NCBI RefSeq assembly: GCF_029227855.1
Contig: NZ_CP074356.1
Source of the DNA: Escherichia coli
Lineage (GTDB): Bacteria > Pseudomonadota > Gammaproteobacteria > Enterobacterales > Enterobacteriaceae
DNA: 64,000 nt
Strand: one strand, 5' to 3'
Below are positions 20,179 to 36,583 of this stretch, in pieces. Made by a program: the position numbers and the translations under genes. The number at the start of each line of letters is the position of its first letter. The first letter of the stretch is position 1. The notes under the pieces were generated by a model. It worked only from the letters and a program-made list of their open reading frames with translations. It searched no databases and was not told the DNA's origin.

Positions 20179-20346
<168 letters not shown>

Positions 20347-20456
20347 TCATGAGACTATTCTAACCGCTAAGCACAGAAAAGCACTCCCCTTTTGTGCGGT
20401 CAGCTTTGCGTGGCGTTCGTTTTCCGTCACAATAAGACTTTTGCCAGGATATTGTT

Positions 20457-21245
20457 ATGCAGGCCGAAATCCTTCTCACCCTTAAGCTCCAACAAAAATT
20501 ATTCGCCGACCCGCGCCGCATTTCGCTACTAAAACACATTGCGCTTTCCGGTTCCATTAGCCAGGGAGCGAAAGATGCCGGTATCAGCTATAAAAGCGCC
20601 TGGGATGCCATTAACGAAATGAATCAGTTAAGTGAGCATATTCTGGTCGAGCGCGCAACAGGCGGTAAAGGTGGCGGCGGCGCAGTACTGACCCGCTATG
20701 GTCAGCGACTGATTCAGCTCTATGACTTACTGGCGCAAATCCAGCAAAAAGCCTTTGATGTGTTAAGTGACGATGACGCCCTGCCACTGAACAGCCTGCT
20801 GGCCGCGATCTCACGTTTTTCACTGCAAACCAGCGCCCGTAACCAGTGGTTCGGTACCATCACCGCCCGCGATCATGATGACGTTCAACAGCATGTTGAT
20901 GTCTTACTGGCTGATGGAAAAACACGCCTGAAAGTCGCAATTACCGCACAAAGCGGCGCGCGTCTGGGGCTGGATGAAGGCAAAGAAGTGTTGATATTGC
21001 TAAAAGCGCCGTGGGTAGGCATTACTCAGGACGAAGCTGTCGCACAAAACGCCGACAACCAATTACCGGGTATTATTAGTCATATTGAGCGCGGCGCAGA
21101 GCAGTGCGAAGTATTAATGGCGCTACCCGACGGGCAAACACTGTGCGCCACAGTGCCGGTAAATGAAGCGACTTCTCTTCAGCAAGGACAGAATGTCACG
21201 GCCTACTTTAATGCCGACAGCGTGATTATCGCCACGCTGTGCTAA
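20457..21245 (+). CDS. modE: Molybdate-responsive transcriptional regulator ModE
   Basis: 262 aa ORF MQAEILLTLKLQQKLFADPRRISLLKHIALSGSISQGAKDAGISYKSAWDAINEMN... matches ModE. Confidence 0.95.
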   Translation: MQAEILLTLKLQQKLFADPRRISLLKHIALSGSISQGAKDAGISYKSAWDAINEMNQLSEHILVERATGGKGGGGAVLTRYGQRLIQLYDLLAQIQQKAFDVLSDDDALPLNSLLAAISRFSLQTSARNQWFGTITARDHDDVQQHVDVLLADGKTRLKVAITAQSGARLGLDEGKEVLILLKAPWVGITQDEAVAQNADNQLPGIISHIERGAEQCEVLMALPDGQTLCATVPVNEATSLQQGQNVTAYFNADSVIIATLC

Positions 21246-28324: not shown

Positions 28325-29025
28325 GGCTCTCTTACCAGCCGCGCCCTAACAGGCGCACACGATCTGACATTTGCATCCAACTTCGTTACTTACGGCCCGT
28401 AAACGGGCTGCCCGGATAGGGAATCGATAACTGCTCTCCCATTTTATCCTCTTCAAGCTGGTGCTTTATGTAATCCTGTATCTTCGCCGTGTTCTTACCC
28501 ACTGTATCGACGTAGTACCCTCTGCACCAGAACTCCCTGTTCCTGTATTTGAATTTCAAATCACCAAACTGCTCGTAAAGCATCAGACTGCTTTTCCCTT
28601 TCAGATATCCCATAAACCCGGATACGCTCATTTTGGGCGGGATCTCCACAAGCATATGGATATGATCTGCACAGCATTCAGCTTCCAGAATCCGTACGCT
28701 TTTCCACTCACACAGCTTTCTCAAAATACTGCCTATTGCTCTACGCTTCTCTCTGTAGAACACCTGTCTTCGGTATTTTGGCGCAAAAACTATGTGATAT
28801 TTACAGTTCCATCGGGTGTGCGCTAAGCTCTTTTCGTTCCCCATTGGGACCCCCTTTTGATTTCTTGTTTGACACTTGCAGTTGCCAGACCGCAAAGTGT
28901 TTTAACAAATCAAAAGGGGTTTTAATAACTGGCTCAAAGCTGAAAGCTTTCCGGAACCCCCAGCCTAGCTGGGGGTTTTCTGTGCACAATGAGAAAGCCG
29001 ACTGCAAGTGAGTCGGCTTTTTTGT
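28325..29025 (-). mobile_element. IS200-family insertion sequence (IS200/IS605 group); ends approximate
   Basis: Contains a Y1 HuH transposase gene; on the transposase-upstream side there are two strong hairpins characteristic of the IS200 left end (aacccccagc-ctag-gctgggggtt at about 28951-28975 and aagccgactgc-aagt-gagtcggctt plus T-run at about 28994-29025); about 700 bp total, the expected IS200 size. Confidence 0.75.
28386..28844 (-). CDS. tnpA: IS200-type transposase TnpA (Y1 HuH transposase, 152 aa)
   Basis: MGNEKSLAHTRWNCKYHIVFAPKYRRQVFYREKRRAIGSILRKLCEWKSVRILEAECCADHIHMLVEIPPK... with the HxH motif (HIHML) and catalytic-Tyr region; start trimmed from the ORF track to the internal Met. 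Confidence 0.9.
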   Translation of the reverse strand: MGNEKSLAHTRWNCKYHIVFAPKYRRQVFYREKRRAIGSILRKLCEWKSVRILEAECCADHIHMLVEIPPKMSVSGFMGYLKGKSSLMLYEQFGDLKFKYRNREFWCRGYYVDTVGKNTAKIQDYIKHQLEEDKMGEQLSIPYPGSPFTGRK

Positions 29026-32693: not shown

Positions 32694-33737
32694 TTATCCA
32701 CGTAGTGTAGCCGCAAAATCCAGCATACGATTGAGCGGCACCAGCGCCCTCTCTCGCAGCCTTTCATCAACATGAACCTCGTGATTGCTTCCTTCCTGTT
32801 CTAATGCCTCTGCGATGGCCTGAAGGCCATTCATGGCCATCCACGGACAATGCGCGCAGCTGCGGCAGGTTGCACCCTCACCTGCGGTTGGTGCTTCCAG
32901 TAACTCTTTATCTGGCACCGCCTGCTGCATTTTGTAGAAAATACCCCGATCGGTTGCCACAATAAGCCTCTGATGTGGCAATGTTTTCGCAGCAGCGATC
33001 AGTTGACTGGTGGAACCGACCGCATCCGCCATATCGACAATAGCTTGTGGTGATTCTGGATGCACCAGTATGGCAGCATCCGGGTATTCTTCTTGCAAGC
33101 GGGTTAACGCCTGAGTCTTAAATTCATCATGCACAATGCAGGCACCCTGCCAGCATAAAATGTCTGCGCCCGTCTGTTTTTGCACGTAACGCCCCAGATG
33201 TTTGTCGGGTGCCCAGATGATTTTTTCACCCAAACTATCCAGATGATCAATAAGTTCGACGGCAATGCTTGAAGTTACCACCCAATCTGCCCGCGCTTTT
33301 ACCGCAGCAGAAGTGTTGGCGTAGACGACGACAGTATGATCGGGATGGGCATCGCAAAATGCGTTAAATTCTTCAACAGGGCAGCCGAGATCCAGTGAAC
33401 ATTCAGCCTGAAGTGTCGGCATCAGAATTGTTTTTTCCGGACTGAGAATTTTGGCGGTTTCTCCCATAAATCTCACCCCAGCGACTAACAACGTAGAAGC
33501 GGGATGCTTTGCACCGAAGCGCGCCATTTCCAGAGAATCAGAAATACAGCCACCGGTTTCTTCTGCCAGTTGTTGAATTTCGGGATCGGTATAGTAATGG
33601 GCAACCATCACCGCATTACGTTCTTTTAGCAGACGTTTTATCTTCTCGCGGTAATACGCTTTTTCATCAATGCTTAACGGCGTCGGCTTCGGGGGGAAAG
33701 GATAAATCGCCGTGTCTGGATCAAACATCACGCTCAT
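32694..33737 (-). CDS. nadA: Quinolinate synthase NadA
   Basis: 347 aa [58 protein letters not shown]...; matches NadA. Confidence 0.96.
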
Positions 33738-34169
33738 CTTACCATCTCGTTTTACAGGCTTAACGTTAAAACCGACATGAGCGTAATATTCGCTGTTATC
33801 GGTGTAATTTGTTTTATATGCTAAACAAGATAGTCGAATGGTGGGGAAAAGTCACTCGAATTACGTATGAGATGCCGAATGCCACACTTTGCGTCTTATT
33901 TCTCCGACGTAAAGTTGTTTACGCAGCAAACGCGGAGTATGTCATCTGGGTTAAGAATTGAAATTGAGAGATGCCTGAATAGCAAAAAAGCGCCTTTAGG
34001 GCGCTTTTTTACATTGGTGGGTCGTGCAGGATGACTCGCTTCGCTCGCCCTACGGGCCGTCGCCGCGAGCGGCTCCGTTATTTCGCTGCGCTCAACTCGA
34101 ACCTGCTGCAGGTTCGAATCTTTGAGTATCGCAGATAGTAAAAAAGCGCCTTTAGGGCGCTTTTTTACA

Positions 34170-34245
34170 TTGGTGGGTCGTGCAGGATTCGAACCTGCGA
34201 CCAATTGATTAAAAGTCAACTGCTCTACCAACTGAGCTAACGACC
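34170..34245 (-). tRNA. lysQ: tRNA-Lys (anticodon UUU)
   Basis: Reverse complement is GGGTCGTTAGCTCAGTTGGTAGAGCAGTTGACTTTTAATCAATTGGTCGCAGGTTCGAATCCTGCACGACCCACCA; gene name by position in the K-12 order. Confidence 0.93.
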
Positions 34246-34278
34246 CCTTGCGGGATTATGCTGCTTTAATCATTCAGG

Positions 34279-34354
34279 ATGGTGGGTCGTGCAGGATTCG
34301 AACCTGCGACCAATTGATTAAAAGTCAACTGCTCTACCAACTGAGCTAACGACC
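34279..34354 (-). tRNA. lysZ: tRNA-Lys (UUU)
   Basis: Identical 76-nt tRNA-Lys sequence on the minus strand. Confidence 0.93.
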
Positions 34355-34500
34355 CATACGGGTGTTACCTGAAAGATTTCTACTCGGAACCAATCTTTAA
34401 AATTGGTGGGTCGTGCAGGATGACTCGCTTCGCTCGCCCTACGGGCCGTTGCTGGCGCAACGTTATCCTTCACGCTTAACATCTGAGTTTGATGTTAAAA

Positions 34501-34576
34501 TTGGTGGGTCGTGCAGGATTCGAACCTGCGACCAATTGATTAAAAGTCAACTGCTCTACCAACTGAGCTAACGACC
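34501..34576 (-). tRNA. lysY: tRNA-Lys (UUU)
   Basis: Identical 76-nt tRNA-Lys sequence on the minus strand. Confidence 0.93.
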
Positions 34577-34579
34577 CGA

Positions 34580-34655
34580 GTGGTGGGTGATGACGGGATC
34601 GAACCGCCGACCCCCTCCTTGTAAGGGAGGTGCTCTCCCAGCTGAGCTAATCACC
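34580..34655 (-). tRNA. valZ: tRNA-Val (anticodon UAC)
   Basis: Reverse complement is GGGTGATTAGCTCAGCTGGGAGAGCACCTCCCTTACAAGGAGGGGGTCGGCGGTTCGATCCCGTCATCACCCACCA. Confidence 0.93.
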
Positions 34656-34706
34656 CGATACTGCGCTGGATACTACAAACTACTTCCACCGAACCCACCG
34701 TAATTA

Positions 34707-34782
34707 GTGGTGGGTCGTGCAGGATTCGAACCTGCGACCAATTGATTAAAAGTCAACTGCTCTACCAACTGAGCTAACGACC
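34707..34782 (-). tRNA. lysW: tRNA-Lys (UUU)
   Basis: Identical 76-nt tRNA-Lys sequence on the minus strand. Confidence 0.93.
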
Positions 34783-34784
34783 CG

Positions 34785-34860
34785 GTGGTGGGTGATGACG
34801 GGATCGAACCGCCGACCCCCTCCTTGTAAGGGAGGTGCTCTCCCAGCTGAGCTAATCACC
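34785..34860 (-). tRNA. valT: tRNA-Val (UAC)
   Basis: Identical 76-nt tRNA-Val sequence on the minus strand. Confidence 0.93.
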
Positions 34861-34995
34861 CGATACTACGCTGGATACTACAACTAACTAGGTTAGTGGT
34901 GGGTCGTGCAGGATGACTCGACTTCGTCTCGCCCTTCGGGCCGTTGCTGACGCAACGTTATCCTTCACGTTTTACTACCGCTTCCACCTTAGCGA

Positions 34996-35071
34996 TTGGT
35001 GGGTCGTGCAGGATTCGAACCTGCGACCAATTGATTAAAAGTCAACTGCTCTACCAACTGAGCTAACGACC
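34996..35071 (-). tRNA. lysT: tRNA-Lys (UUU), first gene of the operon
   Basis: Identical 76-nt tRNA-Lys sequence on the minus strand. Confidence 0.93.
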
Positions 35072-35236
35072 CACTTTTTCGTTGCTTTCGGTTTGTTTGA
35101 TATCCCGTGGCAACGGCGGCATATATTACTGATTTCAGACTTGAGCGCAACAAAAATTTCGATGTAGATCACTCAACTGCTTATGATTCGCACGACACGA
35201 CCAGAAATAATGCGACTTCTGGTCGTGTGTTATGCA

Positions 35237-36028
35237 TTACATCGCGTTCAGACGTTTTTGTGCCTGTTTAGCGCCATCAGTACCAGGGTATTTACTGATA
35301 ACCTGCTGGTATACGGCTTTCGCTTTTGCGGTGTCACCTTTGTCCTGCATGATGACGCCGACTTTAAACATCGCATCTGCAGCCTTTGGTGACTTCGGAT
35401 AGTTTTTTACTACCGAAGCAAAATAGTACGCCGCATCATCTTTTTTACCCTTGTTGTAGTTTAACTGACCCAGCCAATAATTGGCGTTTGGCAGGTAAGT
35501 TGAATCAGGGTAATTTTTGATGAAATTCTGAAATGCCACCATTGCGTCATCCTGGCGGGATTTATCCTGCACCAGCGCAATTGCTGCATTGTAATCCGTG
35601 TTTGCATCGCCGCTTTTCACCGGCGCGCCAGCATTCGCAGTACCAGCATCAGCTGTCGGCGTCGTTGATGCCGCCGCACCGCTTTGATCACCGCTGGTTG
35701 ATTGCGCCGCTGCACCACCGCTGCTGAGGCTGTCGATCTGCAACAGGATCTGCTTTTGCCGCTCCACGACCTGATTCAGTTGATACTGATTTTCCTGAAT
35801 CTGGCCACGCAGGGAATCAATATCGGATTGATTATCAGAGAGTTGTTGCTGGAGTTGGGTTAAAAGCTGGCTGTGAGCATTTGAAATACGCTCAAGTTGA
35901 GTGACGCGGTCTTCGACCGAGCCTGAGCCGACACTACTGATTGGTGCCTGAGCAAAAGCGGCCCAGGGGGCCGCTATACCAACCAGTAACGACAGACTCA
36001 ATAGTTGATGTCTGAAGTTACTGCTCAT
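35237..36028 (-). CDS. cpoB: Cell-division coordinator CpoB (YbgF), periplasmic TPR protein
   Basis: 263 aa ORF with signal peptide MSSNFRHQLLSLSLLVGIAAPWAAFA and a coiled-coil/TPR C-terminus; matches CpoB. Confidence 0.95.
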   Translation of the reverse strand: MSSNFRHQLLSLSLLVGIAAPWAAFAQAPISSVGSGSVEDRVTQLERISNAHSQLLTQLQQQLSDNQSDIDSLRGQIQENQYQLNQVVERQKQILLQIDSLSSGGAAAQSTSGDQSGAAASTTPTADAGTANAGAPVKSGDANTDYNAAIALVQDKSRQDDAMVAFQNFIKNYPDSTYLPNANYWLGQLNYNKGKKDDAAYYFASVVKNYPKSPKAADAMFKVGVIMQDKGDTAKAKAVYQQVISKYPGTDGAKQAQKRLNAM

Positions 36029-36037
36029 GCAATTCTC

Positions 36038-36583
<546 letters not shown>

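Follow-up and report, generated by a model that had tools for sequence, protein, structure and literature searches.

Tandem fail-safe intrinsic terminators stand behind highly expressed stable-RNA operons, as in the case of rrnB T1-T2. The trailer of a tRNA operon can also give rise to an RNA in its own right: 3'ETS-leuZ derives from a tRNA trailer upstream of the only terminator of its operon, and it has known sRNA partners. A further system is formed by the 178-bp repeats distal to tyrT-tyrV (RF00391; rttR, b4425), the RtT elements, for which a covariation-supported structure has been described (PMC7657543). For the lysine tRNA operons, Agrawal, Mohanty and Kushner (2014, PMC4176162) reported, in the passages of that paper considered here, that the terminators of lysV and lysQ are identical, and they treated the sequence as a Rho-independent terminator. 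According to the same passages, the full-length valU transcript of ~438 nt binds the terminator probe on Northern blots, and the terminator is removed by RNase P, which cuts between U and G, two to three nt past the CCA.

In this work, we analysed a window of 64,000 nucleotides of Escherichia coli DNA (RefSeq assembly GCF_029227855.1, contig NZ_CP074356.1), in which two copies of a terminator hairpin follow a tRNA operon. The feature is real and ordinary, and essentially already known: it is a polymorphic Lys-type RtT unit with its own terminator, present in K-12 and annotated in RefSeq.

The lysQ-nadA interval and its duplicated terminator

The tRNA search, the ORF list and the annotation of an identical genome gave the minus-strand order tolB, pal, cpoB, seven tRNA genes, nadA and pnuC; the genome in question is that of E. 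coli strain JNEC-KY178, whose sequence is 100% identical over 33740-35240. The duplicated hairpins sit between lysQ and nadA, and the gene that the initial annotation had placed downstream on the same strand is indeed there, 247 nt past the second hairpin copy. A generic promoter/terminator scan returned no sigma-70-like promoter in 33500-35500. Upstream of nadA, at 33810-33827 (minus strand) and 157 nt downstream of the distal hairpin, we noted TGTTTAGCATATAAAACA, which we take to resemble the NadR operator, TGTTTA-N6-TAAACA. Elsewhere in the window, Rfam also matched the STnc490 Hfq-binding RNA (28854-28977, minus strand, 144.6 bits) and the CpoB/ybgF thermometer (35999-36137, minus strand, 142.2 bits). 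The features discussed below are collected in Table 1.

Table 1 Features of the lysQ-nadA interval and of the tRNA operon upstream of it (positions in the window).
Feature	Position	Strand	Basis
nadA, co-directional, insulated by terminators	32694-33737	-	ORF list; annotation of identical genome
Downstream copy of the 54-nt repeat	33979-34032	-	repeat search
T2, distal terminator hairpin copy; followed by GCTATTCAGGCAT, the native lysQ-nadA flank	33984-34010	-	exact match; fold
Pseudo 3' end, exact copy of the last 18 nt of tRNA-Lys (AUCCUGCACGACCCACCA)	34015-34032	-	repeat search; script
RtT-type tRNA-trailer element, long form, ending in the tRNA-Lys 3'-end copy	34015-34139	-	Rfam RF00391; PGAP label; alignment with tyrT repeats
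Conserved RtT core: AACG, hairpin, then ACGGCCCGUAGGGCGA (GCCC-GNA-GGGC hairpin)	34045-34079	-	invariant alignment columns
Palindrome: T-stem 5' strand and T-loop bases of tRNA-Lys (GCAGGUUCGA), preceded by their complement	34097-34119	-	sequence; fold
First 12 nt of the unit, ACTATCTGCGAT; equal to the native 3' flank of the K-12 lysV terminator (G for A at the first base)	34128-34139	-	comparison of lysQ and lysV loci
Upstream copy of the 54-nt repeat: real lysQ 3' 18 nt, ATGT, T1, 5 nt	34135-34188	-	repeat search
T1, proximal intrinsic terminator hairpin (AAAAAAGCGCC CUAAA GGCGCUUUUUU)	34140-34166	-	exact match; fold -19.1 kcal/mol, z -7.8
lysQ, last tRNA-Lys(UUU) gene of the seven-gene operon (lysT operon)	34171-34246	-	ARAGORN; Rfam tRNA 79.2 bits; K-12 annotation of homologous locus
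Short-form RtT unit, lysY-lysZ spacer; pseudo 3' end 34404-34421	34404-34501	-	Rfam RtT 54.4 bits; alignment
Short-form RtT unit, lysT-valT spacer; pseudo 3' end 34897-34914	34897-34996	-	Rfam RtT 60.6 bits; alignment

An exact-match search of the 64-kb window found the hairpin AAAAAAGCGCC-TTTAG-GGCGCTTTTTT in two exact copies, as the initial annotation had claimed, with its coordinates off by 1-2 nt. The full 27-nt sequence, AAAAAAGCGCCTTTAGGGCGCTTTTTT, is absent elsewhere in the 64 kb, and 100 dinucleotide-preserving shuffles gave a mean of 0.00 matches. The direct repeat exceeds the hairpin: 33979-34032 and 34135-34188 share 54 nt at 98% identity with a period of 156, the lone mismatch being C at 33983 against T at 34139. 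Read in the direction of transcription, the repeat consists of the last 18 nt of tRNA-Lys (AUCCUGCACGACCCACCA), AUGU, the hairpin and 5 nt, which agrees with the earlier view that the duplication took in both the terminator and part of the tRNA-Lys 3' end. T1 begins only 4 nt (AUGU, 34167-34170) past the CCA end of lysQ.

On the operon strand, T1 and T2 were predicted to fold as 13-bp hairpins of -19.1 kcal/mol (z = -7.8 and -5.3, respectively), each consisting of a 5-bp G/C stem, a 5-nt loop and U6, with A6:U6 pairing extending the stem to 13 bp. Both therefore carry what an intrinsic terminator needs on the transcribed strand, that is, a G+C-rich stem-loop with a directly adjoining U run. 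The initial annotation had taken the hairpin for the Rho-independent terminator of the tRNA operon, and this is supported by the fold, by the exact match and by the identical sequence published for K-12 after lysV and lysQ. The generic promoter/terminator scan missed both T1 and T2, and direct folding was used instead; our guess is that the scanner extended the stem through the A/T runs and was then left with no T tail. The only terminator of strain AZ146, a strain without the unit, has ATGC for ATGT and GGCGT for GGCGC, which turns one G-C pair of the 5-bp G/C stem into G-U.

The hairpin had also been proposed to terminate transcription in both directions. This is plausible as far as its symmetry goes, which folding detects on both strands (plus-strand folds of -20.3 and -15.6 kcal/mol for the two copies), but the ORF list contains no convergent gene at the lysQ locus for such termination to act on. 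At the sister hairpin after lysV in K-12, the convergent xapR ends 78 nt away.

As to which copy is used, the ~438 nt of the valU transcript in the passages considered of PMC4176162 equal the distance to the first hairpin of the valU operon; the blots thus place termination of the valU operon at this hairpin, which makes T1 the probable working terminator after lysV, and the same is presumed for lysQ. In reading these blots it should be kept in mind that the terminator probe of that study would hybridise with both T1 and T2. At least 49 nt are shared without a difference by T1 and T2, and likewise by the copies at lysQ and lysV; for this reason short-read 3'-end maps and terminator probes cannot separate the copies. 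In the part of the Term-seq data of Adams et al. (2021) that we consulted, the lysQ locus lists only the mature CCA end, at 781652; the 49-nt identity makes short reads ambiguous, and such multi-mapping is part of the reason why these data are uninformative on T1 versus T2. Another paper lists no entries at the lysQ-terminator coordinates, and the passages searched of PMC4176162 make no mention of a second terminator copy or of an intervening RtT element.

T2 would be at most a back-up terminator before nadA. It is most likely present because it is part of the repeat unit and not because a second terminator was separately selected, and the roughly half of E. coli genomes that manage with one terminator count against a need for it. 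In the predicted fold, the RNase P cut site between U and G falls at the 5' base of the 13-bp hairpin, which would be expected if RNase P treats the hairpin as a helix resembling the acceptor/T-stem. Between T2 and the nadA promoter, a patch of ~95 nt (window 33866-33959) is ~30% diverged in K-12 MG1655 relative to the window and three other E. coli strains, with flanks that are nearly identical across strains.

The segment between the two terminators

The segment between the hairpins matched the Rfam RtT model (RF00391) at 34015-34140 on the minus strand over its full length (1-130, E 3e-7) with 48.4 bits against a gathering score of 45, a marginal score that lies only ~3 bits above the threshold, compared with 133-138 bits for the tyrT units. 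RefSeq places the PGAP label "RtT sRNA" on exactly the corresponding segment (34015-34139), both in the genome with 100% identity and in the majority of the listed genomes that carry the interior. Judged by sequence, the interior is shown to be a member of the RtT family, homologous to the 178-bp repeats behind tyrT.

Several properties of RtT elements are found in it. It directly follows lysQ and is thus part of a tRNA operon's 3' trailer, with the same (minus) strand orientation as the operon; all 18 of its last 18 nt equal the tRNA-Lys 3' end, CCA included; and the invariant columns of its core are common to it and the tyrT units in the alignment. The outer helix, which joins the 5' end of the element to AUCC and the 3' strand of the T-stem, is not formed here: cmscan reported several non-canonical pairs, and CTCAAAGAT fits only 4 of the 9 positions of the required GTGCAGGAT, against 8 of 9 in Budvicia and Erwinia. 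The tpr-like (protamine-like) ORF is likewise absent from the Lys unit, which reads AGATTCG where the K-12 tyrT unit has GGATGAG with the ATG of the tpr start, and therefore has no start codon at this site.

The conserved part can be delimited by comparison. The Lys segment and the four K-12 tyrT-locus units share the core AACG-hairpin-ACGGCCCGNAGGGCGA in the alignment, in each case preceded by a palindrome of the cognate T-arm. In the Lys unit this palindrome is tcgaacctgctgcaggttcgaat, an 11-bp hairpin in the predicted fold, and both the Tyr and the Pro units have equivalents made from their own T-arms. The hairpin after AACG shows compensatory changes among 96 related units, with one pair occurring as U-A in 60, C-G in 18 and U-G in 11 of them and the next as G-C in 80, C-G in 8 and A-U in 3.

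The truncated tRNA-Lys fragment that the initial annotation had seen between the hairpins corresponds to the 18-nt 3' end ATCCTGCACGACCCACCA, running from 34032 to 34015 on the minus strand. The order of parts along the interior is GCAGGUUCGA (the T-stem 5' strand and five T-loop bases), a core of ~65 nt, and then AU-CCUGC-ACGACCC-A-CCA; since the tRNA pieces flank the core in this order, the core sits inside a split T-loop copy. The accompanying claim that the interior is a degenerated tRNA copy did not hold. Of the 76 tRNA positions no more than 28 can be made out, the 10 of GCAGGTTCGA and the last 18 nt, and what lies between them is a core that recurs across tRNAs and in many genera. Neither ARAGORN nor the Rfam tRNA model detected a tRNA within the interior. 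The cloverleaf remains expected of a tRNA pseudogene are not seen along the segment, and the 10 + 18 of 76 positions are separated by the ~65 nt of RtT core. In the literature on RtT, rttR and lysQ, we found no description of a Lys-type RtT module.

Copy number, origin and wider distribution of the unit

The initial annotation had suggested comparing the copy number of the unit in other E. coli genomes, and this comparison proved informative: at the lysQ site, strains differ in having no unit, one or two. It is missing in O157:H7 Z892 and in AZ146, where lysQ-T-GCTATTCAGG leads straight into the nadA flank; the window strain and K-12 carry one; and strain F374 carries two, which gives it three terminators. 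Of 5426 complete E. coli genomes, 2837 carried the unique 107-nt interior (window 34033-34139; K-12 781684-781790), in 1-4 places each (4381 in total), and it was thus absent from any location in ~48% of them. As a rough figure, about 17 of 39 evenly spaced chromosomes had it at lysQ. Only this interior-only count and the evenly spaced sample were used; allele counts based on 80% coverage were set aside, since they were confounded by pieces joined across the 156-nt insertion and by partial matches at other loci.

K-12 MG1655 has the same lysQ-T1-RtT-T2 layout, together with four internal short-form units. Those after lysW and lysZ are present in K-12 and absent in the window strain, where the spacers measure 51 nt (34657-34707) and 33 nt (34247-34279), compared with 149 and 132 in K-12. 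These losses are precise, running from the real tRNA-Lys 3' end to the pseudo 3' end. A few plasmids also carry tRNA-Val/tRNA-Lys sequence matching the lysT operon, in 14 plasmid places, for example at about 20250-20600 of the 50-kb NZ_CP098226.1.

A second, nearly identical module lies after lysV in the valU operon of K-12. There the repeat reaches 61 nt and takes in CTATCTGCGAT, the native lysV flank. At lysQ, this lysV-type flank CTATCTGCGAT appears only after T1, and T2 runs into GCTATTCAGGCAT, which strains lacking the unit have immediately behind their one terminator. Because the left edge of the unit carries the lysV flank CTATCTGCGAT, the unit appears to have been copied to lysQ from a lysV-type locus. 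We infer that it formed at such a locus and probably reached lysQ by gene conversion, the direction from lysV to lysQ being read from a 12-nt flank only. The module of Budvicia, which stands behind the Lys gene of a Val-Val-Val-Lys operon, fits a lysV-type origin.

Outside E. coli, the terminator-RtT-terminator layout was also found in Citrobacter, Pseudocitrobacter, Enterobacter, Erwinia and Budvicia, and in Klebsiella sp. BIGb0407 a valU-type operon is followed by three 156-bp units in tandem. Within each lineage the terminator copies have the lineage's own sequence, and such lineage-specific matching points to concerted evolution or recent duplication. In Enterobacter sp. Bisph1, the unit behind tRNA-Lys measures 231 nt (direct-repeat period 231, compared with 156 in E. 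coli) and contains two cores in series, one belonging to the type of the non-enteric repeats and the other to that of the Lys RtT units, which links both groups.

The core itself was followed with a pattern scan of one genome per species, whose hits mix chance matches with many true units. In Enterobacterales the core stands directly behind tRNA-Lys, Tyr, Pro(CGG) and Arg(ACG), and in other Gammaproteobacteria near tRNA-Gln, tRNA-Ser and tRNA-Tyr genes. In Superficieibacter, Pantoea and Pseudocitrobacter, an RtT core adjoins a duplicated 5S rRNA 3' end (AACTGCCAGGCAT) between the 5S gene and tRNA-Thr, and these 5S-linked cores gave no Rfam RtT match. Tandem intergenic repeats of 76-80 nt in Alloalcanivorax, Aliiglaciecola, Pectobacterium, Pseudomonas, Halomonas and Salinicola contain the same core, as AACG-hairpin-ACGGCCCGNAGGGTGA-hairpin-TCAT, without a tRNA end; they match no Rfam family at the gathering score, and their likeness to Xanthomonas sX7 is weak (26 bits against 55).

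It is a speculative and rather doubtful extension that the RtT core is a widespread structured module, which always interrupts a partial 3' copy of the preceding stable RNA between T-loop positions 58 and 59, and that T1-RtT-T2 is one local form of a self-propagating or processing-related RNA element. If so, RNase P or the enzymes of 3'-end maturation might use the core as an entry site or be decoyed by it; alternatively, the repeats might spread by recombination at the 3' ends of stable RNAs. In several tRNA families the RtT elements are consistently built around a split T-arm, which is in any case a lead for work on tRNA-trailer RNAs. The Lys unit is a normal, polymorphic part of the lysT and valU tRNA operons of E. 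coli, and as strains have from one to three terminators separating this very strong tRNA operon from nadA, it provides natural alleles for the measurement of read-through.

Readings of the arrangement and likeness to known systems

Taken together, the 3' end of the lysT operon probably carries a tandem-repeat module, in which one 156-bp unit was added behind lysQ to give lysQ-T1-RtT-T2. The unit consists of an RtT-type trailer element, the 18 nt copied from the tRNA-Lys 3' end, ATGT and a terminator, and its copy number would shift by unequal recombination or slippage between the direct repeats of 49-61 nt. RNA polymerase would stop mostly at T1, as the valU Northern blots in the passages considered of PMC4176162 suggest; on read-through past T1, the RtT element would be transcribed, and the stop would come at T2, before the nadA promoter.

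We regard it as quite unlikely that the operon 3' end (tRNA-Lys plus terminator) was duplicated once and that the second tRNA then decayed into the 107-nt interior. Pieces of tRNA-Lys do bound the interior in the right order (GCAGGTTCGA, ATCCTGCACGACCCACCA, terminator), and the 5' part of the element is degenerate in E. coli compared with Budvicia and Erwinia, but the acceptor 5' strand, the D-arm and the anticodon arm have left no trace detectable by ARAGORN or Rfam. Decay would moreover leave a unit of 129 nt (tRNA 76, ATGT 4, terminator 27 and the 22-nt spacer before the palindrome), compared with the 156 found. The conserved sequence between the tRNA pieces is common to the units behind tRNA-Tyr, tRNA-Pro and tRNA-Arg, and with a core so shared the interior cannot be random tRNA-Lys decay. 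Much the same material could be read as a functional small RNA comparable to RttR, the stable processed 171-nt RNA from the tyrT operon, made on T1 read-through, trimmed to the CCA and dosed by the layout. The covariation support for the RtT structure (PMC7657543; our own count of 96 units) and the retention of the module across Enterobacterales families speak for this, as does the 3' end with its AUGU-terminator junction, which is that of real tRNA-Lys, so that trimming by RNase P and exonucleases could apply. The missing unit in ~48% of complete E. coli genomes, the unformed outer helix of the E. coli copy and the tpr-like ORF without a start codon nevertheless make a small RNA improbable, and the literature examined reports no RNA from the interior.

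The repeats also invite a reading as scars. Integrases that target tRNA genes usually leave as their footprint a direct repeat like the 18-nt stretch from the T-loop to the CCA, and the two tRNA 3'-end repeats could then be the attL and attR remains of an almost fully deleted element, once integrated in the T-loop-to-3'-end region of tRNA-Lys. The 18-nt direct repeat from the T-loop to the CCA end resembles this footprint, and internal units are gained and lost precisely at these repeats. Such an origin is nonetheless very unlikely: the 107 nt between the repeats hold no integrase remnant and no credible ORF, the repeat continues beyond the tRNA to include the terminator, at least four different tRNAs as well as 5S rRNA are followed by the same core, and a search of a phage collection with the unit gave no phage, its sole match being a Salmonella genome contig annotated RtT. 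Another possibility would be that T1 and T2 pair with each other in the read-through RNA as a long-range clamp around the RtT element. In the minimum free energy fold of the 200-nt read-through RNA (-87.2 kcal/mol, z -7.6), the 5' half of T1 does pair with the 3' half of T2, but any duplicated palindrome gives such pairing automatically, T1 would fold locally once transcribed, and alleles with 0, 2 and 3 units exist; we consider a clamp extremely improbable.

The tandem-repeat module can finally be set beside the known systems. With 3'ETS-leuZ it has in common that the sequence runs from the last tRNA to a terminator and might be left as a stable by-product of tRNA processing, and it differs in that the Lys RtT element lies beyond the first terminator and has no known partner or product. 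Like rrnB T1-T2, it places serial intrinsic terminators between a very strong operon upstream and an unrelated gene downstream; unlike them, the lysQ pair consists of exact copies within a repeat unit, not of two distinct terminators, and the second is missing in about half of the strains. The valU/lysT terminator described in the passages considered of PMC4176162 has the same sequence as T1. From the tyrT-tyrV distal repeats (RF00391; rttR, b4425), the Lys unit is set apart by its length (156 nt compared with 178), by being based on tRNA-Lys and not on tRNA-Tyr, by an intrinsic terminator of its own in every unit where the tyrT units have none, and by a degenerate outer helix without a tpr-like ORF. 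Both are nevertheless built alike, as repeated trailer units on the operon strand that end in the cognate tRNA 3' end including CCA, share the core AACG-hairpin-ACG(G/A)CCCGNAGGGCGA together with a palindrome of the cognate T-arm, and form tandem arrays of variable length.
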